Source of the DNA: Candidatus Pelagibacter sp. HTCC7211
GTDB taxonomy: Bacteria > Pseudomonadota > Alphaproteobacteria > Pelagibacterales > Pelagibacteraceae
Direction of reading: 5' to 3'
Length of the DNA stretch: 32,000 nucleotides
Assembly (NCBI RefSeq): GCF_000155895.1
Contig: NZ_DS995298.1
Coordinates: 1,424,889 to 1,456,888, forward strand
This document shows, one piece after another, positions 7,702 to 32,000 of the stretch. Position 1 is the first letter of the stretch, and each line of letters opens with the position of its first letter. The notes beneath the pieces were generated by a model. That model ran no database searches, was not told the DNA's origin, and saw only the letters and a program-made list of their open reading frames with translations. A program made the translations under genes and the position numbers.

Positions 7702-8847
7702 TTATTTATAATTAGATATGTATTTATAAGCTAGTGAATGAAGTTCCCCACATCTCTTTAAATTAAGTTTATTTTCAGCTATTTGTCTTGATTTTTTACC
7801 AAATCTTTGTCTTAGTTTAGATCTATCAATAAGCTTTTTTATACCTTTTGCCAAATTTTTATCATTTCCTACTCTAACAACCAAACCATTATTGCCATTA
7901 TTAATAAATTTTTTAATGTCACCAACATCAGTGGAAACTATTGCCTTCTCCATTGACATAGCTTCCCATACAGATAAGGGTGAAGATTCATTTCTAGAAG
8001 TACAAACATATATATTAATTAGCTTAAGCAAAGGCCTAACATCTTCTCTATAATTCAGAAAAAAAAAATTTTTTATTGACAGTTCTTTTATTAAACTATT
8101 TAATTTCTTAAAATATTCATTTTGACTAGCGTAAATATTACCTATTACAATAAAAACTATTTTATCTGAGTAAAAAGATAGTTTTTTTGCAGCCTTTATA
8201 AACATTTCAAGGTTTTTAACTGGATTTATATTTGAAACTGTACCAATAATAATTTTTTTTTTTTCAATTTTTTTATTTATAAATTTCTCTTTTGGATATT
8301 TCAAATAAGGATTAAAAAAATTTGTATCAACAGGTGACTGAATTATAAAACTTTTACGATTAGGTATTAATTTCTTATAATAATCTTTTGTCTTCTCCGA
8401 AGCAAAAATAAACCCATTTGCTAAATGACTTAAAAAAAAAAATATATTTCTAATTAAAGTAGGAGAATATGTATCATTTAATTCCCAAATAACCTTGATA
8501 GAAGCTAATTTTGCAGCAAAAATTCCTTTACTTTGCCAACAGCCACCACTTACGTGTACAAGGTCAAAGTTATATTTTTTCAATATTTTAGCTAGCATAA
8601 TAACCTCAAATGGAAAAAAAATTATATAAAGTAAAATATCAATCAAATTACGTTTTATTGTAGTTAAAGATAACGATAAATAATTAACACCAAGTAATTT
8701 ACATTGTTTTTTTATAGCTCTTGAATTTTGATTTGGGAAAATTAATGTTACATCAACCTGTCCTCTTAAAACTTTTGCAACTTTTAAATTTCGAATCTGT
8801 GGACCACCTATTCTTGCTTCTTCTATAATGTTAGCAACACGTATCAA
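7702..8847 (-). CDS. Family 4 (GT-B) glycosyltransferase
   Basis: 381 aa. N-terminal IGGPQ-type motif and C-terminal E-x7-E region RNESSPLSVWEAMSMEKAIVSTDVGD. It starts at TTG (8847..8845), which overlaps the TGA of the upstream gene. Confidence 0.75.
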   Translation of the reverse strand: MIRVANIIEEARIGGPQIRNLKVAKVLRGQVDVTLIFPNQNSRAIKKQCKLLGVNYLSLSLTTIKRNLIDILLYIIFFPFEVIMLAKILKKYNFDLVHVSGGCWQSKGIFAAKLASIKVIWELNDTYSPTLIRNIFFFLSHLANGFIFASEKTKDYYKKLIPNRKSFIIQSPVDTNFFNPYLKYPKEKFINKKIEKKKIIIGTVSNINPVKNLEMFIKAAKKLSFYSDKIVFIVIGNIYASQNEYFKKLNSLIKELSIKNFFFLNYREDVRPLLKLINIYVCTSRNESSPLSVWEAMSMEKAIVSTDVGDIKKFINNGNNGLVVRVGNDKNLAKGIKKLIDRSKLRQRFGKKSRQIAENKLNLKRCGELHSLAYKYISNYK

Positions 8848-10067
8848 CTGATAAGATCCTTAATTGTGTTTTTGTTTTTTAAATTACTTACGTTAACAGG
8901 TCTTTTGTAATTATAATGATTTAAACCACACAAGATAATTGCATACCAACAAAAATAATATCTATACCAAGGGATAGCCAGAAGATAAATCATACTTATT
9001 AATAAGAGAGTACGATTTGTATTTGAAAAAGATATGGACATAAATAGCACTAAGCAAGAAATTAAAATTCCAAATTCAAAGAAAAGATATAAAAAACCTG
9101 AAGATAATCCTCTACCTAGTTCATCATCAGAATATTTGATAAAATTATTTATTCCATGACCAAATAAAAGTTTGGAAATAGAGGCATCCTTTAAAACTTC
9201 AATAGCAAAGAAATTTCGTTCCATTCGATCTAGAAATGAGGTTTCAGAAAAATGTAAATTGAATGACTCAAAATTTACATTAAACAAATAAGAAACAATT
9301 AAAATTAATAATGATGACATTAATACAGTAAGTACAACATTAATTTGTTTAAATTTTAAATCTAGAATAAGAATAATTATTAAAACCAAATAAAATGTAA
9401 GTGAAAAAGTCAACAAACCAGCTAACAAACTTGTAAGATAATATTTTATTGGAAATAAATTTCTATTCTTTGAGATAATCAATAAATTAAATGCAAAAAA
9501 CATACCTGCATATTGTGGTTCAGTAAAAAAACTACTAACTCTCTCTAATCCAATAAAAGCAAATTGTTTAAAGACTGTAAAACCAAAAATACTAATTTTA
9601 TAATCGTAAGCTGGGTTAAATAAAGACTCAGATGAATTGAAACTTACTAAAGAAGTATTAAAATTTGTGAACTGATTAACAAAAAAAGAAATAATTGCTA
9701 AAATTGAAATTATGAATGAAAAACGTATCCATAATCGAAGAAAAGTTTCATTACTAAAATTATTTGTTCTTAAAACTCTAAATATTGAATAAGCAACAAA
9801 AATTACCGCATATGCAGATAGAACATTATTTAAGCTACTCCTCTGAGAGAAAATCTCCAGAATTAAAATAATCATCAAAAGAATAAAAAAATTAATTTCT
9901 AAAAATTTAAATTTTGTATTCTCAAGATAAAGTAATAATATAATTACTACACCAATCAACCCTCTTATTTCTTTTCCAAAAAATGGAAGTTGAGAGAATA
10001 CAAATGGTGGGCTAATTAATGCTAAAGCAATTAGTAAAATAGAAATAATTTTTATTCGAGTATGCAT
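8844..10067 (-). CDS. Polytopic membrane protein, O-antigen polymerase/ligase-like (Wzy-type)
   Basis: 407 aa. About 10 or more hydrophobic segments with a larger loop in the C-terminal half, and low sequence complexity typical of Wzy. Position between glycosyltransferases supports the call. No diagnostic motif is readable by eye. Confidence 0.5.
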   Translation of the reverse strand: MHTRIKIISILLIALALISPPFVFSQLPFFGKEIRGLIGVVIILLLYLENTKFKFLEINFFILLMIILILEIFSQRSSLNNVLSAYAVIFVAYSIFRVLRTNNFSNETFLRLWIRFSFIISILAIISFFVNQFTNFNTSLVSFNSSESLFNPAYDYKISIFGFTVFKQFAFIGLERVSSFFTEPQYAGMFFAFNLLIISKNRNLFPIKYYLTSLLAGLLTFSLTFYLVLIIILILDLKFKQINVVLTVLMSSLLILIVSYLFNVNFESFNLHFSETSFLDRMERNFFAIEVLKDASISKLLFGHGINNFIKYSDDELGRGLSSGFLYLFFEFGILISCLVLFMSISFSNTNRTLLLISMIYLLAIPWYRYYFCWYAIILCGLNHYNYKRPVNVSNLKNKNTIKDLIS

Positions 10068-15418: not shown

Positions 15419-16564
15419 TTATAATTTAAATTCTCTTAGTTTGCTATTAATAAAGCTTATCTCTTTATTTTTTAAATGAGGATGCAAAGGCAAAGTAACT
15501 AATTCTTTCCAAACTTTAAGAGCGATTGGTATTTTAGATTTAAACTTTTTATACAATGGATGCAAAGGTAATGGCATCAAATGAACACTAGTTGAGATAT
15601 TATGTTTTTTTAGATAAGAAATTAATTTGTCTCTATTTTTTGATCTTATTGAAAACATCCAGTATGATGATTTATTTAGATCATAGGGAAATGTTGGAAT
15701 TAAATTTTTACATTTTTTTAAATTTTTTAAATATTTTTTTAAAAACTTTATTCTTGAATTATTAAGAAATGATAATTTTTTTAATTGTACTCTACCAATA
15801 GAAGCTTCAAGATCATTCATATTGTATTTAAAACCAAGTTGATTTATTTCGTAATACCAATGAAGATTTTGTTTGTTTTTTTTTTTATTATTTGAAAATC
15901 TTTGCTTATGTCTTAATAAAGGGTCTTTATCCCATCCATGAAAACTTAATGATTTTAATTTTTTTGCAATATGAGTATTATTTGTAACGATCATTCCACC
16001 ATCACCCGTTGTCATCATTTTTTTTTCCTCAAAACTAAAGCAACCAAAGTGACCCCAAGTACCAATTTTTTTTCCTTTATAGTAGCCTCCACAAGTTTCG
16101 GCACAATCTTCTATTACAATTAATTTTTTTTGATTAGCAAATTTCATAATCCTATCCATTTCACAGGGATGTCCCCCAAAATGAACTGGCATGATAGCTA
16201 CACAATCTTTAGTAAATTTTTTTTTCAAATCATCTAGGCTCATATTTAAATCATTTTTGTTTATGTCCACAAAAACTGGGATTAAACCACAATATAAAAC
16301 TACTGCTGCAGTTGCGCTAAAAGTTATCGCTGGAACTAAAACTTTTTTTCCTTTTTTAAAATTGTTGCATAAAAGAGCAAGGTGCAAAGCTGCTGTACAT
16401 GAATTTACTGCTATACTGTGTTTAACCCCAAAATGTTTATTCCATTCTGCTTCAAATTTTTGTACTTCGGTTCCATAACCTATCCATGATCTTTTAAAAA
16501 CTTTTTTTACTGAATTTAGTTCTTTAGAACCTAACGAAGGTTGAAACAGCCTAATATTATTCAT
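15419..16564 (-). CDS. DegT/DnrJ/EryC1/StrS-family PLP-dependent NDP-sugar aminotransferase
   Basis: 381 aa. The N-terminus (LFQPSLGSKELNSVKKVF...) and the PLP-lysine region FSFEEKKMMTTGDGGMIV are typical of the family. Confidence 0.85.
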   Translation of the reverse strand: MNNIRLFQPSLGSKELNSVKKVFKRSWIGYGTEVQKFEAEWNKHFGVKHSIAVNSCTAALHLALLCNNFKKGKKVLVPAITFSATAAVVLYCGLIPVFVDINKNDLNMSLDDLKKKFTKDCVAIMPVHFGGHPCEMDRIMKFANQKKLIVIEDCAETCGGYYKGKKIGTWGHFGCFSFEEKKMMTTGDGGMIVTNNTHIAKKLKSLSFHGWDKDPLLRHKQRFSNNKKKNKQNLHWYYEINQLGFKYNMNDLEASIGRVQLKKLSFLNNSRIKFLKKYLKNLKKCKNLIPTFPYDLNKSSYWMFSIRSKNRDKLISYLKKHNISTSVHLMPLPLHPLYKKFKSKIPIALKVWKELVTLPLHPHLKNKEISFINSKLREFKL

Positions 16565-16567: not shown

Positions 16568-17353
16568 TTATTTTTTCTTAAATATATAAGTTTGTATCTG
16601 AGAAAAATCTTTAGTGTGTTGATTTTCTGACATTGAATTTGCAATTTTTTCTAATGGATGATCATAATTTGTTTTTTCTTTCAAAAATTCTTTTGCATAT
16701 CGCGCGTATACTAATCTTGTAATATAATAGAAATCGCTTGCAAATGGAGAAATTTCAACAAGTTTTATACTTTTAAATTCATGATTTCTTAATCTTTCAT
16801 CATCAAAAAAAAGATTATGAAACGGAGGAATTATTTCATGAAGATCGTATTTTTTTCTTGCTAAATTAAGTCTTTTTTGGGCATCAGCAGAACTTTCAAC
16901 TAATACCATTAATCCGTCATCTTTTAAAAAACTACCTAAATTTTCTATTGTTTGAATTTGTAGATCTTGCTCTAAAACATTTTGTATAGCCCTTTTTGAA
17001 ATTATGAAATCATATTTTTTTTCAAAAGAGGAGCTAGTAATGTCAGTCATATCCTGTTGAATAAAATTATGTTTATCTGAATTAGATTTTTTAGAACAAA
17101 CATCAATTAAGTCTTTTACAAAATCAGTTCCAAGATAATCAAAGCTTTTTAGCTTTTGAGCAATTTTAGAATACAATACTCCATTCCCACATCCAATTTC
17201 TAAAATACTTTTATTATCTTCTATTCTTTTTAAAATTTCGCTGTCTTCAACATCGTCAAAAGCTATATCATTAGTGCAAACTTGTCTTTCTTTATTTTTT
17301 TTTAACCTTTCAACCCAGAAATCGTGGTTTTCTTTTTTTAATTTATATTCCAT
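16568..17353 (-). CDS. Class I SAM-dependent methyltransferase
   Basis: ILEIGCGNGVLY motif I and an acidic motif II (LGTDF). The track start at 17374 is a TTG. The ATG at 17353 (MEYKLKK...) lies 1 nt after the upstream stop and is preferred. Confidence 0.7.
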   Translation of the reverse strand: MEYKLKKENHDFWVERLKKNKERQVCTNDIAFDDVEDSEILKRIEDNKSILEIGCGNGVLYSKIAQKLKSFDYLGTDFVKDLIDVCSKKSNSDKHNFIQQDMTDITSSSFEKKYDFIISKRAIQNVLEQDLQIQTIENLGSFLKDDGLMVLVESSADAQKRLNLARKKYDLHEIIPPFHNLFFDDERLRNHEFKSIKLVEISPFASDFYYITRLVYARYAKEFLKEKTNYDHPLEKIANSMSENQHTKDFSQIQTYIFKKK

Positions 17354-17354
17354 A

Positions 17355-18383
17355 TTATAGCTTAATCCTTTCAAACATATTTAAAGTCTTTTTATATATA
17401 AAGTATAAAGGTGAGAAATATACAGCAGGATAAACTAAATTGTAAACAAAATGTTTTTTAAAATTAAAATATTTTTTTATTCTATGATCATTTACTAAAA
17501 AAAGTTTTAGCATTTCTACCGCAAAGTTTCTTAGCGCATAGTTTTTACAATAAAAATATCTCCAAAAACCCATTCCTCTTGATCTATAATAATCTAATAT
17601 TTCAGGCACCCTCACTATTACGACAAAACCGTAAAGTTTTGTCCATTCTCTTACTCCTTGTAAACAAACACATAATGGCTCACCATGAATAATTGCCTTT
17701 GAGTTTTTAAAAGCGTTAGCAAATATCATAGTATTAAAAAAGGTATTATCCTCATTTGACATCCAATTTTTATCCATAATATTTTTATGATTTAAACATG
17801 ATAAATTTTCTACCCAGCCTTTTCTTCTAAACATGTTTAAAAACATTCCTAACAAAAAATCAAAAGAAACATTGGGGTTGATTACTTCCCAAAAACTAAC
17901 TTTTCTATTTTTTTTTTGAATTGAAAATGTTTTAAGTTTATTTGGGATCTTATAAGTTGAAAAGGGATGTTTAAAATTATTTAAAAAACTTTTATTCAAT
18001 AAATAAGCATTCATATAAAAATAATCCACATCTTTATGTTTATTAAGTAGATTTTTTATTTTTTTTAAACTTTTTGGCAAAAGTAGATCATCATTTCCAA
18101 TCGTCCAAACAAATTCTCCACTTGCCATACTCACAGATTTTAAAAAATTACGTGTTATTCCAAGATTACGATTAAATTTATTAAATTTAATGTTTATTTT
18201 TTTTTTGTATTTTTTAATAATTGAATTTATATCATGCTTAGAACCATTATCTGAGACACAGACTTCAAAATTAAATCCTTTGCAATTTTTTTTACTAATA
18301 AATATGGCTTCAAGACAATTTTCCAAATATTGTGGACGATTATAAGTGGGTATACAAATACTTAATTTTAATTTTTTTTTCAC
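17355..18383 (-). CDS. Family 2 glycosyltransferase-like protein
   Basis: 342 aa. LSICIPTYNRPQYLENCLEAI ... VCVSDNGS and GNDDLLL motifs. It appears to start at GVG-class codon GTG (18383..18381). Confidence 0.7.
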   Translation of the reverse strand: MKKKLKLSICIPTYNRPQYLENCLEAIFISKKNCKGFNFEVCVSDNGSKHDINSIIKKYKKKINIKFNKFNRNLGITRNFLKSVSMASGEFVWTIGNDDLLLPKSLKKIKNLLNKHKDVDYFYMNAYLLNKSFLNNFKHPFSTYKIPNKLKTFSIQKKNRKVSFWEVINPNVSFDFLLGMFLNMFRRKGWVENLSCLNHKNIMDKNWMSNEDNTFFNTMIFANAFKNSKAIIHGEPLCVCLQGVREWTKLYGFVVIVRVPEILDYYRSRGMGFWRYFYCKNYALRNFAVEMLKLFLVNDHRIKKYFNFKKHFVYNLVYPAVYFSPLYFIYKKTLNMFERIKL

Positions 18384-18415: not shown

Positions 18416-19066
18416 TTATTTTTTCTGAAAATAATATGGTCTACCATTTTTTGATACTTTGTAAACTTTAAGCTTATTTTTTTTTATGAACTCATCTATG
18501 GCTAAGGTTGCACCTTTTATATGTGTGTAATCATCAATAAGAACTATTCCGTTTTTTGAAACATATTTATACAAAGTATTTAATACAAACCTTGTAGGTT
18601 CATATACATCTAAATCTAAATGTAATAATGATATTTTTAGTTTTTTATTTTTAGTTAAATAATTAGGTAAAGTTTTTAAAACATCTCCTTTAACAAGATC
18701 ATAGTTTGTTAAATCTTTTTTTTTCAAATATTTTTTTAAAAGTTTTACACTTATACCAAGACCAATATTATTATCATGTCTCTTAGCAAAAACTTTGTCT
18801 GCTTTATTATTTCTATACTCTTTCTTGGGATGAGGAAATTTTCCGAATGCATCAAAACCTATTACTTTCCTTTTATTTTTTTTTTCAATTAAATCTCTAA
18901 AAGTTAAAAACCTTATCAAGCTTGCACCTTTGAAAACACCACATTCAATTATATCTCCTTTAATATTCAAAATTTTTTTATAAATTTCATAATGATCTAG
19001 TAATTTCAGTATTCTTTTTTTATCTGAAGTTAAGTAAAATAAATTTTCGTATTGCCATGTATTCAT
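18416..19066 (-). CDS. TylF/MycF-type (macrocin-O-methyltransferase family) SAM-dependent sugar O-methyltransferase
   Basis: 216 aa. ECGVFKGASLIRF, LHLDLDVYEPT and IVLIDDY match the TylF family pattern. An ATGA overlap (19063..19066) links it to the upstream ORF. Confidence 0.7.
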   Translation of the reverse strand: MNTWQYENLFYLTSDKKRILKLLDHYEIYKKILNIKGDIIECGVFKGASLIRFLTFRDLIEKKNKRKVIGFDAFGKFPHPKKEYRNNKADKVFAKRHDNNIGLGISVKLLKKYLKKKDLTNYDLVKGDVLKTLPNYLTKNKKLKISLLHLDLDVYEPTRFVLNTLYKYVSKNGIVLIDDYTHIKGATLAIDEFIKKNKLKVYKVSKNGRPYYFQKK

Positions 19067-20859
19067 AGTCTATTTTCAATTATTCTTTTAAATTTTAAGT
19101 TAAAATTTTTATCAGGCAATTGAGTATAAAGATTAACAAACTTTTTCAAGTTATTTTGAACATTATCATTATTCCACCATTTTAAAGGATCATTCCATAT
19201 GTCTAATAAATGTTGATATAATTTTTCCTGGTCATCAAAAAATATTTTAGAGTTTTTTAACAATTCATAATCTTGAACAACAAATTTATTTTGATGTTGA
19301 TAACCCTTTTCCCAGAGACATAAAGTTGGTTTATTTAAAGCAAACATCTCTAATATACCAGTTGAATCATGGTTAAATAATATTAATTTTGCACTGTTTA
19401 TTGCATCGAAATAATTCTGTTCGGAGTAATCGATTTTAAATCGATCTAAATCTTTTAACTGATCTTCAATTCTATTTTTTGAAGCGTAATGAGCTCTTAT
19501 TACAGTTTTTTTAACCAGATCTGATGAAAATTTTTTACAAAGTTTTACAGTTAAATCTAATTGATTAAGTCCTTCGCTATATCTATCATATGGAACTGCA
19601 TTATATCCACTAGATCTCATTAAGATAAGAAATTTATCTACTTTTTTATTTTTAAAGTATTTTTTATTCAACAACTTAAAATTTACAAATTTTAAATTAT
19701 TTTTTTTTGTGGTATCAGTTTTGTCACCCCAAGTTATAAAATAATCACAAGTGTTACATTCATTATTATAACTGTTATCCAACCTAGTGATATATGATCC
19801 ACCATGTTGATAAACAAAATATTTTATTTTGGGATTATAAAATTTTCTCAAAGCAACATAATATTTAAATGGCTCAATACTTTCAAATGCATAACTAGTA
19901 CAAATTGCTTTAGGATTTTTTGGAAAATTTAATTTTTCTGAATATTCTATTAAATTTTTAAAATCCTCCACAATTGTTATGGGCAAAGACTTATTTAAAA
20001 TTCTTATTATTAAGTTAAAAATTTTGACAAAATGCTTGTCATAATTTTGATTATCTAATTTTACAAATTTTTCAAAATTCAAATTTTTTCTTAATTTACA
20101 ATCAAAATTAGAGTAATTAAAATTAAAATTTAAAGGATATACTCTTGGTAATTGCCCGAAAGATAAATCAATTTTTTTTTCATTAAAAAATTCAAATCCC
20201 ATATTATATAAAAAAATATTTGAATTATTGGGTATTAAATTTGTTAAATAAAACCAAAGATTAATTATATTTTGTTTAAAATTCTTTTTATTATCAGAGG
20301 ATTTTCTATTGCTTAATAATTCTGTATCATCAAATTTTTTTTCTGATAATTTAATTATATTTAATTCAATATCTAAAAAACAATTTTTTAAAATATAAGA
20401 ATAAATACATGTGTTCCATAAGTTGTTTATAGTGGCGTGTTGTATTGTATGTGTCTCTGTTGTGAAAAAATTAAAATTTGTAGTGTCATAAATAGTTGTA
20501 TAATTAATATTAAATTTTTTTTTACTTTCGATTATATTTTTATATTTAAGTATAAATTGTTGAATAAATTTTCTTAGCCAGGCTCCAATAACAATTTCAA
20601 AAAACTTTTGATTTAAGTTTTTTTCGAAAATTGAATTTAATTCAAGTTTAATACATTCTAATATTTCATAAAATAATTTATTTGATAAATTAAAATTTTC
20701 AATTCGATAACTATAATCTAATCTACTTGAAAAATATTTATCAGTTGATTTTTTTAGTTTACATTGATCATAAATAAAGCGATCAACAAATATATTTTCA
20801 AAATCATCATTTTTATTGATAAATTGATCAGATGGATTTATGATAAGCTTATTTTTCAA
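19063..20859 (-). CDS. Uncharacterised 598-aa protein; candidate transferase (possibly a phospho-headgroup or phosphoramidate transferase)
   Basis: Long intact ORF, translationally embedded between the nucleotidyltransferase and the TylF-type methyltransferase. The TTG start at 20859 overlaps the last 11 nt of the upstream gene. The C-terminal third (YQHGGSY ... ILFNHDSTGILEMFALNKPTL) is vaguely like the GT-B/TagF donor half. The function is not established. Confidence 0.4.
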   Translation of the reverse strand: MKNKLIINPSDQFINKNDDFENIFVDRFIYDQCKLKKSTDKYFSSRLDYSYRIENFNLSNKLFYEILECIKLELNSIFEKNLNQKFFEIVIGAWLRKFIQQFILKYKNIIESKKKFNINYTTIYDTTNFNFFTTETHTIQHATINNLWNTCIYSYILKNCFLDIELNIIKLSEKKFDDTELLSNRKSSDNKKNFKQNIINLWFYLTNLIPNNSNIFLYNMGFEFFNEKKIDLSFGQLPRVYPLNFNFNYSNFDCKLRKNLNFEKFVKLDNQNYDKHFVKIFNLIIRILNKSLPITIVEDFKNLIEYSEKLNFPKNPKAICTSYAFESIEPFKYYVALRKFYNPKIKYFVYQHGGSYITRLDNSYNNECNTCDYFITWGDKTDTTKKNNLKFVNFKLLNKKYFKNKKVDKFLILMRSSGYNAVPYDRYSEGLNQLDLTVKLCKKFSSDLVKKTVIRAHYASKNRIEDQLKDLDRFKIDYSEQNYFDAINSAKLILFNHDSTGILEMFALNKPTLCLWEKGYQHQNKFVVQDYELLKNSKIFFDDQEKLYQHLLDIWNDPLKWWNNDNVQNNLKKFVNLYTQLPDKNFNLKFKRIIENRL

Positions 20860-21610
20860 TAGAATTTTTAAGTACTTTGTAATCTTTTATATTATCTATC
20901 TCAAACCAATTTTTTTGGTAGTTCTCAACATAAATATTACAAATTTTTTTTTTTATAATTAATTGAAATAATGCAGTTATATCTATCTTTGATAAATTTT
21001 TTGTTTCTTTAAAAAGTTTTTGTTTTATCTTATTCCAAGAAAATGGATCTATTTTAAAAACTCCCATATACTGACCTTTAATTTTTTTATAAGAATTCGT
21101 TCTATTTCCAATTTCTATAAGTTCATTTTTATTATTTGATACAAATGTCTCTAAATCCGACAAAGGGTTAGTAAATCTTTTTTTCCAATATTTTTTCCAA
21201 TGCTTATAACTTAATATAACTATTCCTTTTTTTTTTTTACTTTTATTTAATATTTCAATTGCTTCTTTTTCATAGAATATATCCGCATAAGAAATAATGC
21301 ATTGATATTTAGATAATATTCTATCAGCACATATCAAGCTGCCAAAAATATTTGTTGTTTTCCATTTTTTATTTTTAATTTTTTTAATTTTTCTAAATTG
21401 TTTAAATTGATCACTTTTATACCCTGTAATAATAATTATTTTTTTAAATCCAAGCTTTTCAAAATTTTCTAAAACCTTATCAATAAGTTTTTTTTTACCA
21501 ATATTTACAAAAGATTTAGGTTTATTTTTTGTCAATACTCCCATTCTAGAACCTCGCCCAGCAGCAAGAATGATTGGAATAATTTTGTTTGAATGAGATT
21601 TTAAATTCAT
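20849..21610 (-). CDS. Nucleotidyltransferase (LicC/sugar-phosphate NTase fold); candidate CTP:phosphoglutamine cytidylyltransferase (Cj1416-like)
   Basis: 253 aa. IIPIILAAGRGSRMG...KPKSFV signature. It is the first gene of the long minus-strand run. Confidence 0.65.
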   Translation of the reverse strand: MNLKSHSNKIIPIILAAGRGSRMGVLTKNKPKSFVNIGKKKLIDKVLENFEKLGFKKIIIITGYKSDQFKQFRKIKKIKNKKWKTTNIFGSLICADRILSKYQCIISYADIFYEKEAIEILNKSKKKKGIVILSYKHWKKYWKKRFTNPLSDLETFVSNNKNELIEIGNRTNSYKKIKGQYMGVFKIDPFSWNKIKQKLFKETKNLSKIDITALFQLIIKKKICNIYVENYQKNWFEIDNIKDYKVLKNSIEK

Positions 21611-24785: not shown

Positions 24786-25826
24786 TTATAAGTGTTTTTT
24801 TTCTAACGGTGTTCCAAATTTTAAATTTTGTTTGCTTTTTTTTCCTATAACACGCTTAAAATAAATTGGGTCTAAGCCAAAAGAAGGTCGAACTATTTTG
24901 AGATTATTTTTAGTAAATTTTTCATTTTTTTTTATATTTTTTGCTACAAAGATTGATCTTTTGAACATTTTATGTCGTTGTTCATCTTTTGATAATTCAT
25001 AAGAGATTTTACCAAGACTCAACCAAGCATTTTTAGTTTCATTTACTAACAATCTAAACTCATCAGGATCCATAGAAAAGATATCATCAAAACCTCCACC
25101 TTTTTTATCTAAAGTAAAATGTTTTTCAATTATTGTTGCTCCGTAAGAAATCGATGCAACAGCTGCACCAATTCCTGGTGTGTGATCACTTAGACCAATT
25201 TCGACTTTATATTTTTTTTTTAAATCTAATATGGTCTTTATATTACTATCTTCAATCTTTGCAGGATATGAACTCGTACATTGCAGAAACGCAAAATTAT
25301 AAAATTTTTTTTTAACTAGGAAATTATAGAGATATTTTATTTCTTTTTCTGTTGTTGCACCTAACGATATTATTATTGGTTTTTTTTTCTTTATTACCTT
25401 TTCTATTAAAGGAATGTGATTGTTTTCAAATGAAGCAATTTTATATGCTGGTACATCAAAACTATCTAAATAATCTACAGAATTTTCATCAAAAGGGGTG
25501 CTAAAGCAAATAATGCCACATCTTTTTGCCTCTGCAAAAATCTCTTTATACCAGCTGTAGGGCAATGCAGCTTTTTTGTAAAGATCGTATAAATTTTTTT
25601 TGTACCATAAGCTTTTTTTATCTTTGATTAAAAAAAATTTATTATCACAGTTTAAGGTCATTGAGTCTGCATTATAAGATTGTAATTTTATTGCATGTGC
25701 TCCCACTTTTTTTGCTTCTCTTATTATTTTTAAAGTTCTGGTCATACTATTATTATGGTTTGCTGAAATTTCAGCAATTATAAATGGCTGCTTCCTTATT
25801 GTGATTTCTCTGTCAAAAATTTTCAT
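24786..25826 (-). CDS. neuB: NeuB-family nonulosonic acid synthase (NeuB/PseI/LegI; subtype not resolvable by eye)
   Basis: 346 aa. PFIIAEISANHNNS signature, a TIM-barrel body and a C-terminal SAF-like domain (VAKNIKKNEKFTKNNLKIVRPSFGL). Confidence 0.9.
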   Translation of the reverse strand: MKIFDREITIRKQPFIIAEISANHNNSMTRTLKIIREAKKVGAHAIKLQSYNADSMTLNCDNKFFLIKDKKSLWYKKNLYDLYKKAALPYSWYKEIFAEAKRCGIICFSTPFDENSVDYLDSFDVPAYKIASFENNHIPLIEKVIKKKKPIIISLGATTEKEIKYLYNFLVKKKFYNFAFLQCTSSYPAKIEDSNIKTILDLKKKYKVEIGLSDHTPGIGAAVASISYGATIIEKHFTLDKKGGGFDDIFSMDPDEFRLLVNETKNAWLSLGKISYELSKDEQRHKMFKRSIFVAKNIKKNEKFTKNNLKIVRPSFGLDPIYFKRVIGKKSKQNLKFGTPLEKKHL

Positions 25827-26494
25827 TACTTTTTCTTTATTATAAACTTACCTTTAACAAATTGATTGTTTAATGACACATCAGTTAATTCAATTTTTTT
25901 ATTCCCAAGCTTATAGAAAGCTTTAGGATAATTACTTGCATCTAACATTCTAATAAAATCAAAAATATCAACTAACTTTTTATTGATAACATAAGATAAG
26001 TTACTTTGATATGAATTTCTTCTATAATAAAATGAGGATTTACCAGTTTGTTTTTTGAATGAAATTTTTTTTTTTTTAGAGAGTTTTAGAATCATTCCAA
26101 GAGATTTTTTTTCAATATTTTTATAAATATTTTCTGCTTTTCCAGTTAATGAAATATTTGATTTCATACAGATATCTCCACTATCAATTTTATTATTTAT
26201 TTTAAATGCTGAAATTTTTGTTTTGTATATTTTTTTTAAAATTTGATTTTGAATTGGAGAGCCCCCTTTAAATTTTGGTAAATCTGATGAATGAAATTGG
26301 ATACATAAAAAATTTGAAAAAACTTTTTTTGGTATAATTTTAGACCAAAATATAAAAAAAATTATTCTAGGATTAACTTGATTAATCTTTTTCAAATTAA
26401 TATTATCTAATAAAATAAACTCTTTATTATTCTTTAAGAGATTATAATTAGAATTATCCCATTTTTTTTTAGAAATTATAATAATTTGACTCAT
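25826..26494 (-). CDS. Formyltransferase-domain protein (Fmt/PurN N-terminal domain type) lacking the tRNA-binding C-terminal domain
   Basis: HSSDLPKFKGGSPIQNQIL corresponds to the HxSLLPxxRG formyltransferase motif. The track start at 26539 is a GTG that overlaps the upstream gene by 35 nt. The ATG at 26494 (MSQIIIISKKKW) is preferred. Confidence 0.7.
   Translation of the reverse strand: MSQIIIISKKKWDNSNYNLLKNNKEFILLDNINLKKINQVNPRIIFFIFWSKIIPKKVFSNFLCIQFHSSDLPKFKGGSPIQNQILKKIYKTKISAFKINNKIDSGDICMKSNISLTGKAENIYKNIEKKSLGMILKLSKKKKISFKKQTGKSSFYYRRNSYQSNLSYVINKKLVDIFDFIRMLDASNYPKAFYKLGNKKIELTDVSLNNQFVKGKFIIKKK
26065..26077. repeat. T13 (A13 on the coding strand) homopolymer inside the formyltransferase gene
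   Basis: Counted by hand. It encodes the KKKK of LSKKKKISF. It is one of at least twelve A/T runs of 11 nt or more in the window. Confidence 0.9.
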
Positions 26495-26504
26495 TAAATA
26501 TATC

Positions 26505-27173
26505 TTAAGACAATTTTTTAAAAATAAAAAATGACTCACACATTTTTAGACCTACTGAATTTCCTCTAAATTTATAAAATGTTTTCAATGAATTTAAATC
26601 TCTACTTGTTTTTTGATCTTTTATTTCACTGCCATATGCTAGTAATGCTCTTTTTTTTATCTCCCAATATTTAGATATTTCAATGAAATAGTTAGGTGAA
26701 AACTGGTGTGGAGAATAATCTGTTGATGAGGGCACTTCAAAAAATAGAATTTCTTTACATTTTTCATTTTTTAGTGGTCTAAAGGCAGTAATTGTTGCCA
26801 TAGAAACTGCATTATGATCAACATTTAAATCTTTAAAATAGTGAGTGTATACAATGTCTGGTTTAATTTTGGATTTGGCTTTTTCAATAACTTTAATTAA
26901 ATCAAGCAGAGGATACTTATCTAATTTATTATCTTCAAATATTTGATTATTTTCTACCCACTTAAAGTTAAGAATTTTTGAAGCTTTAATTGAGGAATTT
27001 TGTCTTATTTTCAAATTTTTTTTATTCATAAATCCTCTAGCTGAAACACCATCCGTGAAAGATAAACAAAATACTTGATCACCTTTAAGATAATGTTGAT
27101 AAATTGTACCACCACAACCGATCGTCTCATCATCTTGATGTGCAACAATAACTAAAACTTTTTTTTTACTCAT
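26505..27173 (-). CDS. PIG-L/LmbE-family N-deacetylase
   Basis: 222 aa. VLVIVAHQDDETIGCGGTI (AHPDDE-type motif) and a downstream NVDHNAV histidine motif. An ATGA overlap (27170..27173) links it to the upstream amidotransferase gene. Confidence 0.85.
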   Translation of the reverse strand: MSKKKVLVIVAHQDDETIGCGGTIYQHYLKGDQVFCLSFTDGVSARGFMNKKNLKIRQNSSIKASKILNFKWVENNQIFEDNKLDKYPLLDLIKVIEKAKSKIKPDIVYTHYFKDLNVDHNAVSMATITAFRPLKNEKCKEILFFEVPSSTDYSPHQFSPNYFIEISKYWEIKKRALLAYGSEIKDQKTSRDLNSLKTFYKFRGNSVGLKMCESFFIFKKLS

Positions 27174-27775
27174 TGGTTTAGATTAAACATTTTTCTTGCA
27201 ATTTGTATCAGTTTTTTGTCAAATTTTTTTTCTCTTTCTGGATGCCACATCCATCCAAGCCAATTATATTTTTTATGCTTTATTGCTTCAATTTGATTAT
27301 CTTCAGAGTAAGCTATTATTTCAAAATTTCTTCCTAATTTTTTTATGCCATATTCGTGAAAACTATTAACTTTTAACGGGTAATCAAAATTACTTTTTAT
27401 TTTATGATATACTCTTACATGATTATTTATTTTTTTTAAAGATCCTCCCTCAACATAATTAATAAACTGTAAACCATGGCATATCCCAAGAAGAGGTATT
27501 TTTTTCTTTTTAGAAATATTTGTAAGTCGTTTTTCAACTTTATATCTCAATGAATTTTTATTAATATCATTACCGCCGCTTATTATTATTCCATTAATTC
27601 TAAGTGATCTTTGGCGTAAAAAAAAATTTAAAGTTTTTAAATCTGAAATTAAAAGTGGTTTAAAGCCCAAGGATAAAACCCAATCAATTAGTTTAGTATC
27701 TATACAAATTCTTAACTCTTTTTTATTGTAAAAATAATCTTCACGCATTGATACCAAGAGAAAATTATTTTTCAT
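27170..27775 (-). CDS. Class I glutamine amidotransferase/peptidase C26 (gamma-glutamyl hydrolase type); candidate gamma-glutamyl-CDP-amidate hydrolase (Cj1417-like)
   Basis: 201 aa. IPLLGICHGLQFIN nucleophile elbow and WMWHPERE His/Glu motif. Confidence 0.75.
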   Translation of the reverse strand: MKNNFLLVSMREDYFYNKKELRICIDTKLIDWVLSLGFKPLLISDLKTLNFFLRQRSLRINGIIISGGNDINKNSLRYKVEKRLTNISKKKKIPLLGICHGLQFINYVEGGSLKKINNHVRVYHKIKSNFDYPLKVNSFHEYGIKKLGRNFEIIAYSEDNQIEAIKHKKYNWLGWMWHPEREKKFDKKLIQIARKMFNLNQ

Positions 27776-27778
27776 ATT

Positions 27779-30115
27779 TTAGAGTTCTTTAATTAATAAA
27801 TTTTTACAATTAAGATTAATCTTTTTTGATCTTTTAATCTTTTCAAAAATAGCTTCCCCACATCCTATAGCTGCTGGGATATTTAATTCATTACATCTAA
27901 TGGTCATGTGTGAATTTGCTCCTCCATATTTAGTTATTAAACCATTGATTTTAAAACTAAAAATAAAATCAAAACCTGGATCAGCATTTTCCAATAGTAT
28001 TATTTTATTATCTAAATTATTTTCTATTTTATTGTCTAAAAATAATATTTTTCCAGTTATATTTTTTTCAGTAACAAAATTAGGTATACTTACAACAGAT
28101 GCACCCACATAAGCATTTTTATCTTCCACAATGATTTCAGGTAATTTAATTATTTTATTTAATTCTGACTCTTTTGTGTTCTTTTCTATCTTATCTTTAA
28201 TAATTGTTTTTGGAGAATTAGATAAATTCATCAATTGATCTATTGTAAGGTTTTCGATTTCTTTAGTTTTAACTTTTTGATATTTTGCAAAATTGGTTAT
28301 TTTTTCTAAAATTATATTAATACTCTTCGTAAAAATAAATTTTGCATATTCTCTGGATTTGATAGAGGCCTCGATATATTCAAATAACTGAGCTACATTC
28401 AAATTGATCATTTTTTTATTTAGCAATTTCTGAATTTTTTTTTTTTTATTATTTGATAAATTAAATTTTGCATGTTTTATGATATGAGTGACATCATCAT
28501 TAATTAAAATTTTTTTACTCATTTTAGAGTAATTATTAGATTTAATATCGTAAGTTCCAGCTCGTAAATGACCATATTTATTTAAAAAACCTTTATATGA
28601 TAGTTGTTTATTCTTTAACAAAACTTGATCATTTAAAAAGTCTGTAGTCACTGTTGAGAAAGACCTTAAAAAATTTTCAACATCTATCTCGCTTAAGATT
28701 TTAATTTCTTTCAAAGAAATTAATATATCTTTGGCAACAAAACCATGTCTTGCTAAAATTGAAAAAGGTATAATTCCATATTTTTTAAGATCTTTAATAA
28801 TTCCTTTAATCGATAAAACATTAAATTTTTTATCATAATTTTTTTCTTTTTGTTTTTTATTTAAAATTTCAATTTTTTTTAGATTATATTTTATACTACC
28901 ATGATTTTTATTTTTTAAATTGATTAGAAATATTTTAAGTAATTTATTCTCTATATCATGATGATTTTTTTTATACCCCAAATTTTTTAACTTTTTTTTT
29001 ATTTGAAATGAAAAACATGTTGGAAAAAGATCAAATTCAATTTTATCATGTGACGAAGGATGAACTTTTAATTTTAATATACTTTTATCAATTAGTTCTT
29101 GAGAAATATTTTTATTCAAATCTTTTGGCAATAAAGAATTTAAACTTTTACGAATATCAATATAAGGCCTACCAGCAAAACTTTTCATTAAAGAACTATC
29201 TTTAAAAAACTTATAGCCCATTTTTTTTCTTGCAATTAACCAGCATCTATCTGTAATTAATTTAGAATAAAGGCTATAACTTAATTTGGAAGGAAATTGT
29301 CCAATCATTTCAGCAGGATTCCAATCTGACATTTGGCTGAACATAGTTGTTTTGCCATTTAACACAGGCACATTTTTTTTTTTAAAAAATTTCTTAATTT
29401 TATAATATTCAAGTTCTAATTTTTTATTAATATCTTTTTTTGTAAATCTTTTTGATAAATTTTTTTTTAAAACTATTGGTCTAACCTGAAACAAATATAA
29501 TTGATTTTTTTTTGTCATACAAAATTCTATGTCCAGAGGAGTATTAAAACAATTTTCAACTTCTTTAGTTGCGCTTATCAATTCTTTAAATCTAGGTGAT
29601 CTTAAAAAATTTTTTTTATCTTTATATATATAAAGTGTCTTATTTGAGTAAGCTGTATTTCCCGAGGTTACTGTATCTGTTCTACCAGTTACATCATCAT
29701 AATTTATTGTATAATAATTCTCATAGCCAAGGTTATTTCCTGTAAAAATTACACCACTCATTTTAATGTTTTGAATCATTTCTTGTACTAAAATTTGTTG
29801 TTCAGAAATTTTTTTAATTTTTTTTTTATAACTTTTGATAACTTTATTTATAGATTTTGTTATTTCCTGATCATTTTTTGCATTAATATTTAATACAGAG
29901 TCAAAAGCCCCAGCAGCTGACTGTTTATTTGTGTCTTCAAAAGTAGTTGATGATCTAAATATTATTTTTTTTTTAAATTTTGTTTTAATAGTATTTATTA
30001 TATTTTGTTTGTGATCAATCCATTCAGAGATATTAAAAATTACAGACTTAGGTGTTAAAAATAATTCAATTTTATTTTCTAGTGTTTTTAGTGTATTGCC
30101 TTTTGTTTCAAGCAT
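27779..30115 (-). CDS. PEP-utilising-enzyme-family kinase (ATP-grasp/PPDK-N type N-terminus plus C-terminal swivel phosphohistidine domain); candidate L-glutamine kinase (Cj1418-like)
   Basis: 778 aa. C-terminal YGGANSHMTIRCNELNIPAAIGCG mobile-domain motif with His736 (codon 27910..27908). The N-terminal part resembles the PEP/pyruvate-binding nucleotide domain. ATG at 30115 verified. Confidence 0.7.
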   Translation of the reverse strand: MLETKGNTLKTLENKIELFLTPKSVIFNISEWIDHKQNIINTIKTKFKKKIIFRSSTTFEDTNKQSAAGAFDSVLNINAKNDQEITKSINKVIKSYKKKIKKISEQQILVQEMIQNIKMSGVIFTGNNLGYENYYTINYDDVTGRTDTVTSGNTAYSNKTLYIYKDKKNFLRSPRFKELISATKEVENCFNTPLDIEFCMTKKNQLYLFQVRPIVLKKNLSKRFTKKDINKKLELEYYKIKKFFKKKNVPVLNGKTTMFSQMSDWNPAEMIGQFPSKLSYSLYSKLITDRCWLIARKKMGYKFFKDSSLMKSFAGRPYIDIRKSLNSLLPKDLNKNISQELIDKSILKLKVHPSSHDKIEFDLFPTCFSFQIKKKLKNLGYKKNHHDIENKLLKIFLINLKNKNHGSIKYNLKKIEILNKKQKEKNYDKKFNVLSIKGIIKDLKKYGIIPFSILARHGFVAKDILISLKEIKILSEIDVENFLRSFSTVTTDFLNDQVLLKNKQLSYKGFLNKYGHLRAGTYDIKSNNYSKMSKKILINDDVTHIIKHAKFNLSNNKKKKIQKLLNKKMINLNVAQLFEYIEASIKSREYAKFIFTKSINIILEKITNFAKYQKVKTKEIENLTIDQLMNLSNSPKTIIKDKIEKNTKESELNKIIKLPEIIVEDKNAYVGASVVSIPNFVTEKNITGKILFLDNKIENNLDNKIILLENADPGFDFIFSFKINGLITKYGGANSHMTIRCNELNIPAAIGCGEAIFEKIKRSKKINLNCKNLLIKEL
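28435..28447. repeat. T13 (A13 on the coding strand) homopolymer inside the Cj1418-like kinase gene
   Basis: Counted by hand. It encodes the KKKK of NNKKKKIQK. Confidence 0.9.
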
Positions 30116-31295
30116 AATTTAATTCTTCTTGTATTTTTTTTGTTACCACTCTATTTCCATAAGCTGTCAAATGACCTCCATGTTCTTCATCGAGATAAAT
30201 TTTTTTTATATTTTTTTTAGATAAAAAATTTGTCAAATCTATTATCTTTATATCTTTAATTGAATTGAAAAAACTGCAATAATAATTTTTTTTTTTTCTA
30301 TAAAGCTCAATATCTCTTCTTTGAGGAAATATTATAATTATAGGAACTGAATTCTTTTTTCTTGAAATATTTTTAAATCTTTTAATTAACAAACTAAATA
30401 ACTTTATACTTTTTTTATCTGTATAAAGTCTGTTTGCGCTCTCAATATTATTTGAATAATAAAGGGGAAAAAGATATTTTTTCTTATCTTTATGTTTACT
30501 AAACAAAAATAAAAAAAAATTTATAAATAATTTACAATTAAAATTAAAATTTCTAAAAAAAGATAAAAGGTATGGCTTACGAAACTGAAATTTTTTAAAC
30601 TTTTTTTTATAAAAAATATCATTCTTTGATACAGTCTCTATTATTTTAATAATCTTATTTTTATGAAAATCTTTTTTTTTTGATATTGGATTTTTCCTTA
30701 ATTTTAATTTTTCACCATTTAGAAAAAAACTAGGTTTAAAACCATAAATATTACCAAATTCTAAGTAATTTTTCCAAGTTGAATGTATTCTGTTAATAGT
30801 TTCTGGAACCACCCCAATAATAGTAAAAATTGAATTTCTATGTTTATTTTTTTCATATCTTAGAAGAGCTTGGTCAAATCCAAAGTTTCCAACTCCATAA
30901 TTTATAATATGAGAATTCATTTTTTTTGATAAAATTTCTGTCCACACTTGATCATCTTTAACATAACGACCAAAAACGAAGGAGTCCCCATAAGCTTCTA
31001 TTTTTTTTTTTAAATGAGTAAATTTAGATTTTCTAGCTCCCGATGTATCAATTGAAAATTTTGTCTTTTTTTTTAGTTTATCGTGATAATCAGTAATATT
31101 AGGTCTTTTTAGCCAGCCAAAACTTTTATTATAACTTGATTTAAAAAAATTATTTACATTCTCTTTTTTAAAATCTGGATATTCTTCATTTTCAGTTATT
31201 AGCCACTGAAAGTTTTTTTTATTATGATGAACTATAAAAATTAAAAATATTTCTAAAAATAGAATAAAAAAAACGCAATATAATATATTAATCAT
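30108..31295 (-). CDS. Membrane-anchored SGNH/GDSL-like hydrolase or acyltransferase
   Basis: 395 aa. N-terminal TM helix (ILYCVFFILFLEIFLIFIV), block I AYGDSFVFG, a Gly/Asn block NYGVGNFGFDQ, and block V-like LDEEHGGHLTAYGNRVV. 8-nt overlaps occur at both ends. Confidence 0.5.
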   Translation of the reverse strand: MINILYCVFFILFLEIFLIFIVHHNKKNFQWLITENEEYPDFKKENVNNFFKSSYNKSFGWLKRPNITDYHDKLKKKTKFSIDTSGARKSKFTHLKKKIEAYGDSFVFGRYVKDDQVWTEILSKKMNSHIINYGVGNFGFDQALLRYEKNKHRNSIFTIIGVVPETINRIHSTWKNYLEFGNIYGFKPSFFLNGEKLKLRKNPISKKKDFHKNKIIKIIETVSKNDIFYKKKFKKFQFRKPYLLSFFRNFNFNCKLFINFFLFLFSKHKDKKKYLFPLYYSNNIESANRLYTDKKSIKLFSLLIKRFKNISRKKNSVPIIIIFPQRRDIELYRKKKNYYCSFFNSIKDIKIIDLTNFLSKKNIKKIYLDEEHGGHLTAYGNRVVTKKIQEELNYA

Positions 31296-31797
31296 TTTTT
31301 TTTATTAATTCTTTAATCAGTTTTAGATTATTATTTAAAGAATTTTCATCAAAACTGTTTACAATTTTTAAGTCTGAATTTTTTGGCCGTATAAACTCAA
31401 TATCAACTCCAACAACACTTTTGTTCTCTATGCCATCTTTAAAATATACATTCTTGTTGTTTCTCTCTTTTAAAATAGATATTGGTACATCTATATAAAT
31501 TTCATAATATTCTTTTATGTTTTTTCTATTCCATTCAAGCCAATCAGGAAATAAAGATAGCACTGAAACAATTACATTTACCTTATTTTGACTTAAGAAA
31601 TGTGCTAACTTTGAAATTCTTGATGCATTAATATTTCTGTCTTTAATTGAAAAGCCTAAATCATTATCAAAGACTTTTCTTATCACATCTCCATCTAAAA
31701 TTATAAATTCTCCATAATCATTGTTAAGTTCTTTTTTAAGTTTTGTGCTCAAAAAACTTTTTCCAGCACCAGATAAACCTAAAATCCAAATTACCAT
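31288..31797 (-). CDS. Adenylylsulfate-kinase-like P-loop kinase; candidate cytidine diphosphoramidate 3'-kinase (Cj1415-like)
   Basis: 169 aa. MVIWILGLSGAGKSFLS Walker A motif, with size and layout like stand-alone CysC. No cysD, cysN or cysH nearby. Confidence 0.75.
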   Translation of the reverse strand: MVIWILGLSGAGKSFLSTKLKKELNNDYGEFIILDGDVIRKVFDNDLGFSIKDRNINASRISKLAHFLSQNKVNVIVSVLSLFPDWLEWNRKNIKEYYEIYIDVPISILKERNNKNVYFKDGIENKSVVGVDIEFIRPKNSDLKIVNSFDENSLNNNLKLIKELIKKND

Positions 31798-31804: not shown

Positions 31805-32000
31805 CTAATTGTTGTTATAAAATTTTTCTAATTTTAATAGTTTCTCAAATTTATTTTGACTAACTTTACTTTTAATTTTTTTTAATTTATCTACCCTTTC
31901 AAACCTATCTATAATTCGAGGTAAATTTTCTTTTTTCATAATTTTTTTTGTAAAAATCGTTTTATTTAAATCTAAAAATTTACATAATTTATTAATATGA
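31805..32000 (-). CDS. C-terminal 64 codons of an unidentified protein; the gene starts beyond the window end
   Basis: Hand translation of the minus strand is open from 32000 to a TAG at 31807..31805: ...HINKLCKFLDLNKTIFTKKIMKKENLPRIIDRFERVDKLKKIKSKVSQNKFEKLLKLEKFYNNN*. Only 7 nt precede the next start. No family assignment is possible. Confidence 0.4.
   Translation of the reverse strand, partial: HINKLCKFLDLNKTIFTKKIMKKENLPRIIDRFERVDKLKKIKSKVSQNKFEKLLKLEKFYNNN

Follow-up and report, generated by a model that had tools for sequence, protein, structure and literature searches.

A predicted GT-B-fold transferase of the LIC12162 family in a surface-polysaccharide locus of Candidatus Pelagibacter sp. 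HTCC7211, with a possible role in nonulosonic acid transfer

A 32,000-nucleotide stretch of the genome of Candidatus Pelagibacter sp. HTCC7211 (contig NZ_DS995298.1; hereafter the window) carries on its minus strand a 598-aa open reading frame (ORF), placed at 19063..20859 by ORF calls and translation, between a Cj1416-like nucleotidyltransferase gene and a TylF-type methyltransferase gene. Our analysis indicates that the product of this ORF is very probably a LIC12162-family transferase with a GT-B fold that is soluble and cytoplasmic, comes from a divergent SAR11-type subclade, and acts within the assembly block for a surface polysaccharide that is heavily decorated. Regarding its donor we are more tentative: the protein may be the glycosyltransferase that adds the pseudaminic-acid-type nonulosonic acid (NulO) of the locus from a cytidine monophosphate (CMP)-activated donor.

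Assignment of the ORF to the LIC12162 family

Among the NCBIfam models, the ORF has a single, full-length match, to TIGR04331 (LIC12162 family transferase), with E 2.6e-50 and 171.7 bits over profile positions 57–576 of 585, a score under the curated trusted cut-off of 225 bits. Distant homologues reached from the ORF score 209–355 bits on the same model, which argues that the ORF represents a divergent marine (Pelagibacteraceae-type) subclade of the genuine family. The ORF itself gave no Pfam match in a release that did not include PF27859; that entry, named 'LIC12162', is assigned to 44 of 44 homologues of the ORF, including one (P0001) at 97% identity. By an exhaustive profile search, the family comprises 7,915 representative clusters (50% identity) at E ≤ 1e-3, of which 3,482 remain at E ≤ 1e-30. 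A word-indexed search for homologues that started from the family alignment contributed only 5 more proteins. A preliminary description of this DNA had regarded the ORF as an orphan with no nameable signature. The TIGR04331 match, the assignment of PF27859 to its homologues, and the size of the family overturn that view, and they bear out the fallback guess of the same description, that the ORF might be a LIC12162-family protein. Cluster names and the sources examined offer no function beyond 'putative transferase (TIGR04331 family)', a literature search for TIGR04331 found nothing, and no family member has a demonstrated activity or reaction. The representative search also returned a 1,224-aa protein (P0179) with two stretches that match the profile of the family, apparently two LIC12162 modules fused in tandem.

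The coordinates of the ORF, its start codon, its overlaps with both neighbors, and the two motifs singled out in the preliminary description were all verified in the sequence. The TTG start (20859..20857) falls within the 11 nt that the ORF shares with the end of the upstream gene, whose TAA stop is at 20851..20849, and this choice of start is supported by the N-terminal sequence MKNxLxIxPS, which recurs in homologues. The TGA stop (19065..19063) and the start of the TylF-type gene, an ATG at 19066..19064, overlap as ATGA. Both overlaps are thus real, as had been described, but the coupling that they imply is not special: 15 of the 28 same-strand junctions in the window overlap (taking the most upstream starts), and we therefore rejected translational coupling as a sign of shared function. 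The first motif, YQHGGSY, spans residues 350–356 (19792..19812), and the second, ILFNHDSTGILEMFALNKPTL, spans residues 493–513 (19321..19383). Across 161 family members, Q351, H352, and G353 are conserved at 99–100% and T500, L503, E504, and P511 at 92–100%, so both motifs contain family-invariant residues and are far from chance occurrences.

Predicted fold and conserved residues

An AlphaFold2 model of the ORF, calculated from a 21-sequence alignment, has a predicted local distance difference test (pLDDT) score of 90.5 and a predicted template modeling (pTM) score of 0.92. A Foldseek search of this model against the PDB returned 26 matches at E ≤ 1e-3, all of them GT-B-fold proteins and mostly glycosyltransferases, with probabilities of 0.99–1.0, E values of 1e-6 to 1e-3, TM-scores of 0.25–0.48, and sequence identities of ≤13%. 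These structural neighbors include SPY, CalG3, MGD1, MurG, SpnG, PimA, NGT, WaaG, TarL, and PseG, and a second search with a core-only model (residues 290–598) again gave generic GT-B matches only. The modeled fold is GT-B, remote from all solved enzymes; as predicted, it confirms a nucleotide-donor transferase and leaves the donor unspecified. Neither the ORF nor the family profile retrieved anything significant in sequence searches of the PDB, where ALG13 appeared at E 0.47. No hydrophobic or membrane segments were predicted in the protein, which should therefore act in the cytoplasm. The GT-B/TagF-like look that the preliminary description had seen in the two motifs is upheld by the Foldseek matches, TarL among them, as well as by the profile comparison and the PF04464-passing relative described below.

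In the alignment of 161 members, the conserved positions are N75, W94, W148, R257, P293, E298, Q351-H352-G353, D372, W377-G378, R455, T500, L503, E504, N509, P511, and W561-W562. The invariant set drawn from these (N75, W94, R257, P293, E298, QHG, WG, T..LE, N.P, and WW; 89–100% conserved) is complete in the ORF. The C-terminal half holds most of the invariant residues, and the most variable parts are the first ~70 residues and residues 160–290. The enlarged N-terminal region (approximately residues 1–400, 19660..20859, with its boundary read from the order of strands and helices in the model rather than computed) contains a helical hairpin at residues 49–116 together with N75, W94, W148, R257, P293, and E298, and is presumed from the model to form the acceptor side. 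Following a beta-strand, the loop Q351-H352-G353-G354 (19798..19809) includes two residues, H352 and G353, that are 100% conserved; H352 is a candidate catalytic residue. The segment ILFNHDSTGILEMFALNKPTL corresponds to the C-terminal strand–helix nucleotide-binding motif of GT-B enzymes, with T500, L503, E504, N509, and P511 conserved; it aligns to 'SHAGTGSILDSLRLNKPLI' of ALG13 in the match at E 0.47, which alone is not significant.

Relationship to nonulosonic acid transferases

In one of two sister loci (L004), the slot of the ORF, right after the Cj1416-like and TylF genes, holds a 453-aa TIGR04396-type protein that scores 241 bits on TIGR04396 (cut-off 125) and 69.8 bits, under the cut-off, on NF046086 (BFO_1060 family). 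BFO_1060 and its orthologues Tanf_01245 and TFUB4_00887 are the pseudaminic acid (Pse)/legionaminic acid (Leg) transferases of Tannerella forsythia, and their deletion removes the NulO from the O-glycan; BFO_1060-type proteins are GT-B/TagB-like and carry D/E-D/E-G and HP motifs (Tomek 2017). Comparison by hhalign of the LIC12162 profile with four TIGR04396-type proteins gave a probability of 96% and E 4e-9 over 166 columns, covering residues 342–520 of the ORF. As controls, a GT4 profile of three sequences taken from these loci gave 1.5% and E 0.03, and single GT4, PseG-like, GT2, and carbamoyltransferase sequences gave E 0.03–0.5. One TIGR04396-type protein, from locus L035, passes the Pfam model PF04464 (TagF) with 32 bits against a cut-off of 22.1. 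Because of this profile link and the PF04464-passing relative, we place the LIC12162 family with the CMP-releasing GT-B enzymes, that is, with NulO and 3-deoxy-D-manno-octulosonate (Kdo) transferases and TagF-like phosphotransferases.

The hhalign pairs join ITWG to FxWG, IRAHY to RPHPSE, and DSTGILE..NKPT to CTTALEA..KKPI. The first is I375-T376-W377-G378 of the ORF (19726..19737; W377 95% and G378 99% conserved), set against the invariant 'FxWG' of TIGR04396-type proteins. The second is I454-R455-A456-H457-Y458 (19486..19500), which falls on the HP motif, 'RPHPSE', of sialyltransferase-like NulO transferases; in the LIC12162 family R455 is 89% conserved, His at position 457 occurs in 41% of members and Pro at position 458 in 32%. 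In the third, ILFNHDSTGILEMFALNKPTL aligns to 'CTTALEASFFKKPII' of the L004 TIGR04396-type protein. The QHGG loop lies at the place of the 'DEEGG' (D/E-D/E-G) of these proteins, an equivalence made by inspection; the hhalign block starts just before the loop. As a separate observation, L035 (Candidatus Pelagibacter communis SCGC AAA795-O19) contains two TIGR04396-type genes (L035:309-1715 and L035:6036-7361), one of which overlaps the start of the glutamine-kinase gene, a further link in SAR11 bacteria between genes of the NulO-transferase-like kind and the phosphoramidate cassette.

The genomic setting of the family is consistent with NulO transfer as well. NulO genes (NeuB, CMP-NulO synthetase-type, or PseB-like) flank family members in ten loci (L001, L002, L085, L087, L107, L108, L115, L118, L121, and P0043). 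To survey loci that carry the phosphoramidate cassette, we used an alignment of its Cj1418-like glutamine kinase, which has relatives in at least 552 genome stretches, and took the best 80 loci from named genomes; co-occurrence was judged on these loci of ~20 kb rather than on whole genomes, a LIC12162 gene being counted within 10 kb. Kinase loci with NeuB are enriched for LIC12162 genes (4/25 against 1/55; Fisher p = 0.03), and all four high-scoring LIC12162 genes in the NeuB-bearing kinase loci sit between the NeuB and kinase blocks. In the clinical strain Herbaspirillum AU14040, neuABC are followed, in this order, by genes for a surface carbohydrate biosynthesis protein, a LIC12162-family protein, and a GT1 enzyme on an island that also has pseCFI, and the authors who described it propose NulO transfer. 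Within the window, PseI is encoded and, besides the ORF, no other NulO-transferase-like gene was found.

The reaction that we tentatively propose for the ORF would proceed as follows. PseI, a GNAT-family protein, and WbuX/Y/Z would produce an N-acyl/acetamidino derivative of Pse, which would be activated by a CMP-NulO synthetase encoded outside the window. The C-terminal Rossmann domain, with R455, T500, E504, and P511, would bind the cytidine nucleotide, and the large N-terminal region would bind a lipid-linked oligosaccharide made by the neighboring GT2 enzymes. An invariant cleft residue, H352 or E298, may activate the acceptor hydroxyl, and the leaving group would be CMP, as in sialyltransferase-like and TagF-like GT-B enzymes.

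Several observations weigh against NulO transfer. The ORF itself matches neither NF046086 and TIGR04396 nor PF04464 (Glyphos_transf) at E ≤ 0.1, and the sialyltransferase motifs are altered, with QHGG at the D/E-D/E-G place and RAHY, in which the His is kept and the Pro is absent, at the HP place. No sialyltransferase or Kdo transferase appeared among the top 50 matches of either Foldseek search. Because TIGR04396-type and LIC12162 genes stand side by side in Herbaspirillum, one family cannot simply stand in for the other. The NulO association is not family-wide: only 4 of the 11 distant loci, which had short flanks and were examined with crude seeds, showed NulO markers. The second sister locus (L003) has PseI and, within the fetched flank, neither a LIC12162 nor a TIGR04396-type gene; PseB, PseF, and PseG were not found in the window. 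Finally, no member of the LIC12162 family has been characterized.

Alternative donors

The main alternative, possible though in our estimate somewhat doubtful, is that the ORF is a GT-B transferase with another donor, either a nucleoside diphosphate (NDP)-hexose, such as a C-methylated amino-6-deoxyhexose, or some other CDP-activated phospho-headgroup. The structural comparison speaks for an NDP-sugar, and thus also against a NulO donor, in that the best Foldseek neighbors are UDP/TDP-sugar GT-B enzymes (WaaG, MurG, CalG, SpnG, MGD1, and PseG); likewise, the sole PDB sequence-profile match is the weak one to ALG13. The most constant neighbors of the family as a whole are GT2 genes and an NDP-6-deoxyhexose/C-methyltransferase block, 7 of the 11 distant loci lack a NulO marker, and in one locus (L083) a LIC12162 gene is paired with LicD and an NTP-transferase. 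The profile comparison points the other way, since in it the family stands apart from GT4 and PseG-type proteins and is linked with those of the TIGR04396/BFO_1060/TagF-like group. Moreover, the window already encodes three GT2 enzymes, one GT4 enzyme, and an initiating transferase for NDP-sugars, and nothing else for a NulO.

The preliminary description had proposed a different donor, namely that the ORF is the best candidate in this region for transfer of a phosphoramidate headgroup. Such a TagF-like enzyme would use cytidine diphosphoramidate, or the 3'-phospho version of it, as produced by the Cj1418, Cj1416, Cj1417, and Cj1415 homologues; a glycan hydroxyl would attack the terminal phosphorus, CMP or cytidine 3',5'-bisphosphate (pCp) would leave, and a methyltransferase would then complete the O-methyl phosphoramidate (MeOPN). 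We consider this unlikely. The transfer step is unsolved and, as the preliminary description had stated, had not been reconstituted as of the 2025 literature. The relationship of the family to CMP-releasing GT-B enzymes, with TIGR04396-type relatives that pass the Pfam TagF model and TarL among the Foldseek matches at E 3-5e-4, would suit such a reaction too.

Gene order in the closest relatives also favors phosphoramidate transfer. In metagenome neighborhoods of the subclade at ≥60% identity, the order Cj1416-like, LIC12162, TylF, GT2 is essentially fixed, and it recurs in L088 and L104 at 41–45% identity. The kinase cassette lies 3–7.5 kb upstream wherever the flank is long enough, and among the 8 subclade loci with ≥7.5 kb upstream, 7 contain it. 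The LIC12162 gene likewise abuts cassette genes in unrelated Betaproteobacteria, following the Cj1416-like gene in L026 and preceding the kinase in L012. The arrangement breaks up at 40–45% identity, where L087 reads ABC transporter, LIC12162, GT2, P0030 reads carbamoyltransferase, LIC12162, GT2, and the LIC12162 genes of L107 and L108 adjoin NeuB.

Beyond the subclade, the survey argues against a shared pathway. The best 80 kinase loci span Proteobacteria, Bacteroidota, Planctomycetota, Desulfobacterota, Omnitrophota, candidate phyla, and archaea (Methanoregula, Woesearchaeota, and Nanoarchaeota); no Campylobacter locus was among these best 80 of the at least 552. Homologues of each of the other cassette genes occur in 60–70 of the 80 loci. 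By comparison, a LIC12162 gene occurs in 5 of the 80, including 1 of the 11 from Pelagibacteraceae, leaving 75 without the family. Conversely, none of the 11 distant LIC12162 loci with usable flanks contains the kinase cassette, nor was it found in the family loci P0043, P0038, and P0030. The sister loci L003 and L004, whose kinases are 78% and 74% identical to that of the window, keep the cassette, PseI, WbuXYZ, and the Cj1416-like and TylF genes and have no LIC12162 gene. Co-occurrence of cassette and LIC12162 gene thus holds only inside the SAR11 subclade. At the level of loci, the family mostly lacks the donor genes and the cassette mostly lacks the family, an outcome that counts against the ORF as the best candidate for the transfer step; the preliminary description had itself named a family found mostly apart from the donor genes as grounds for giving up its proposal.

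The residues for catalysis and nucleotide binding do not vary between members that have the cassette and members that lack it, which argues for one shared donor class. The TylF type is a sugar O-methyltransferase that also stands beside LIC12162 genes lacking the cassette (L085, L107, and L108), gene overlap is common throughout the window, and the distribution of conserved residues is opposite to that of the Campylobacter jejuni MeOPN transferases (see below). There are, in addition, cassette-adjacent candidates that match the chemistry better: the sulfotransferase-like gene of this window and CDP-alcohol phosphotransferases in 11 other loci. The most specific form of the proposal, that the SAR11 subclade alone was recruited as a TagF-like transferase that takes cytidine diphosphoramidate from the coupled Cj1416-type enzyme, attaches P(O)(NH2) to the glycan, with the Pse residue as a possible site, and frees CMP, likewise appears improbable to us. 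An association with WbuX as the key link was rejected separately: the family is present in 1 of 13 WbuX-positive and 4 of 67 WbuX-negative kinase loci (p = 1.0), and L001 has no WbuX.

Candidates for phosphoramidate transfer within the cassettes

For phosphoramidate transfer, our data point away from the ORF, which is disfavored, and toward genes for sulfotransferase-like, CDP-alcohol-phosphotransferase, and SGNH-type proteins. The sulfotransferase-like gene of the window stops 11 nt short of the Cj1415-like kinase gene, and its C-terminal 64 aa (31808..32000, minus strand) are encoded before the gene runs off the window; it was recognized with a hidden Markov model (HMM) of cluster c18 (E 9.8e-20). 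The family stands beside 11 of the 80 kinase cassettes, often in tandem, and full-length homologues match Pfam Sulfotransfer_1/3 barely above the cut-offs. The compound 3'-phospho-cytidine diphosphoramidate resembles 3'-phosphoadenosine 5'-phosphosulfate (PAPS), the donor of sulfotransferases. A 2019 review gives this compound as the end product of the C. jejuni pathway. A sulfotransferase fold would be a natural match for such a donor because of that resemblance, and the sulfotransferase-like protein is a plausible rival candidate for the phosphoramidate transferase. A literature search for MeOPN together with sulfotransferase found nothing.

Membrane proteins of the CDP-alcohol phosphatidyltransferase family (Pfam PF01066, above the cut-off) occur in 11 of the 80 kinase cassettes (L016:16239-17132, L032:16492-17334, L078:4948-5811, and 8 further loci), and they are mechanistically apt candidates for transfer from a CDP-linked phosphoramidate. 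The window itself encodes, between the Cj1415-like and Cj1418-like genes, a 395-aa SGNH-type protein with an N-terminal membrane helix and the motifs GDS, GxGNxGxDQ, and a C-terminal D..H. Proteins of this type lie within the cassette in 9 loci overall, which span Propionivibrio, Polynucleobacter, Thioglobus, Omnitrophota, and Peregrinibacteria.

Two further genes of the window belong to accessory families of the cassette. A formyltransferase-like protein (25826..26539, minus strand) represents the commonest accessory family of glutamine-kinase cassettes (37/80 loci); being commoner than NeuB in these loci, it may serve the phosphoramidate pathway rather than N-formylation of Pse. An S-adenosylmethionine (SAM)-dependent methyltransferase (16568..17374, minus strand) belongs weakly (E 1.3e-6) to a methyltransferase family that occurs within 21 of the 80 cassettes; as a candidate for forming the O-methyl group of methyl phosphoramidate it is preferable to the TylF-type gene.

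Gene content of the window

Coordinates written with two dots in this section are on the minus strand unless noted otherwise. Upstream of the ORF, the Cj1416-equivalent phospho-headgroup cytidylyltransferase (20849..21610; Pfam NTP_transf_3), whose last 11 nt form the overlap with the ORF, has as its best PDB relatives LicC (1jyk, E 5.7e-12) and a phosphonate cytidylyltransferase (6pd1). Homologues of this protein are encoded in 70 of the 80 kinase loci, as a rule directly within the cassette, so the Cj1416-like identity given in the preliminary description holds. Downstream, the TylF-type sugar O-methyltransferase (18416..19066; Pfam TylF, E 3.2e-22) is closest in the PDB to CalS11, a TDP-rhamnose 3'-O-methyltransferase (E 4e-18). 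Next comes a GT2 glycosyltransferase (17355..18383). Within the subclade, no other gene accompanies LIC12162 genes on their downstream side as constantly: a GT2 is present in 13 of 14 subclade loci, and one stands directly after the LIC12162 gene in L087, P0030, and L105. PseI, the pseudaminic acid synthase, is encoded at 24786..25826 (TIGR03586, 446 bits against a cut-off of 340).

The phosphoramidate donor cassette (27170..31797) comprises four genes: a Cj1417-like hydrolase (27170-27775; NF045546, 111.8 bits, under the cut-off of 250), a Cj1418-like L-glutamine kinase (27779-30115; PRK05849, 752.7 bits), the membrane-anchored SGNH-like 395-aa protein (30108-31295; recognized by its motifs, with no library match), and a Cj1415-like kinase of the APS-kinase family (31288-31797). 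Judged from the sequence, then, the window is a phosphoramidate donor locus in which Cj1418-, Cj1417-, Cj1415-, and Cj1416-like proteins are all encoded, and the expectation that donor-pathway genes would lie near the ORF was correct. Further genes encode a PseH-like GNAT protein, WbuX/HisH/WbuZ, an MBOAT protein, a carbamoyltransferase, and an initiating transferase, and the conventional glycosyltransferases are three GT2 enzymes and one GT4 enzyme. The window also holds a CDP/dTDP-6-deoxyhexose pathway with a C-methyltransferase, the genes for a C-methylated amino-6-deoxyhexose lying at 11943-16564.

Three regions deserve mention in their own right. At 3300..5907 the MBOAT gene is followed by a gene for a 383-aa single-pass protein without a library match, and the two look like an AlgI/AlgJ-type O-acylation pair. 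A 407-aa protein encoded at 8844..10067, with ~9 hydrophobic segments and no family match, is probably a Wzy-type polymerase or ligase. A 95-aa ORF on the plus strand (16191..16478), antisense within an aminotransferase gene, is most likely spurious.

Significance

The LIC12162 family is large and is found in O-antigen and capsule loci across many phyla, with a function assigned to none of its members. The profile link to BFO_1060-type transferases, together with the slot replacement in L004, leads to a concrete hypothesis for it, a CMP-Pse or CMP-Leg donor. The locus indicates, in addition, that abundant marine bacteria of the Pelagibacter type combine a pseudaminic acid pathway with a complete phosphoramidate donor pathway. 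As of a 2019 review, the O-methyl phosphoramidate modification of sugars was known only from Campylobacter, whereas the kinase relatives found here reach into archaea and candidate phyla.

Comparison with known systems

The LIC12162 family takes its name from a gene of the Leptospira interrogans O-antigen locus, and the ORF resembles its members in its end-to-end HMM match, its invariant residues, and a length of ~590 aa. The setting is alike as well, since family members occur in O-antigen-like loci, frequently together with genes for WbuX-type amidotransferases and for NulO. The ORF differs from canonical members in that it scores under the cut-off and in that the SAR11 subclade sits between a Cj1416-like gene and a TylF gene.

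With the TIGR04396/NF046086 proteins of the BFO_1060 family, the ORF shares the profile homology of its residues 342–520 (96%, E 4e-9) and an order of motifs that runs from a strand–loop motif through xxWG and R-x-H to T-x-x-x-E ... K-P. The two also share a slot, as seen in L004, and both adjoin NulO genes. They differ in length (~445 aa against 598 aa) and in key motifs, DEEGG and RPHP there corresponding to QHGG and RAHY in the ORF, and the N-terminal 340 residues of the ORF have no detectable similarity to these proteins.

The cytidylyltransferase gene of tarI/tarL-type operons stands immediately upstream of the transferase gene, and the ORF, too, lies directly downstream of a cytidylyltransferase gene. 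The ORF is further like TagF/TarL (PF04464) in its predicted GT-B fold, in the Foldseek match to TarL (E 3-5e-4), in an invariant histidine at the cleft, H352, which may correspond to their catalytic one, and in its tie, through the intermediate family of L035, to the PF04464 model. Unlike these enzymes, it has no PF04464 match of its own, and the TM-scores are 0.23–0.37.

The C. jejuni MeOPN transferases Cj1421 and Cj1422, which are phase-variable through G tracts, resemble the ORF in size, given as roughly 600 aa in the preliminary description, and in their locus, where Cj1415–1418 homologues and methyltransferases are also found. These transferases have a conserved N-terminal donor region and a variable C-terminus (Guerry 2012). 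Their conserved end is thus N-terminal, whereas in the family of the ORF it is the C-terminal half that is conserved.

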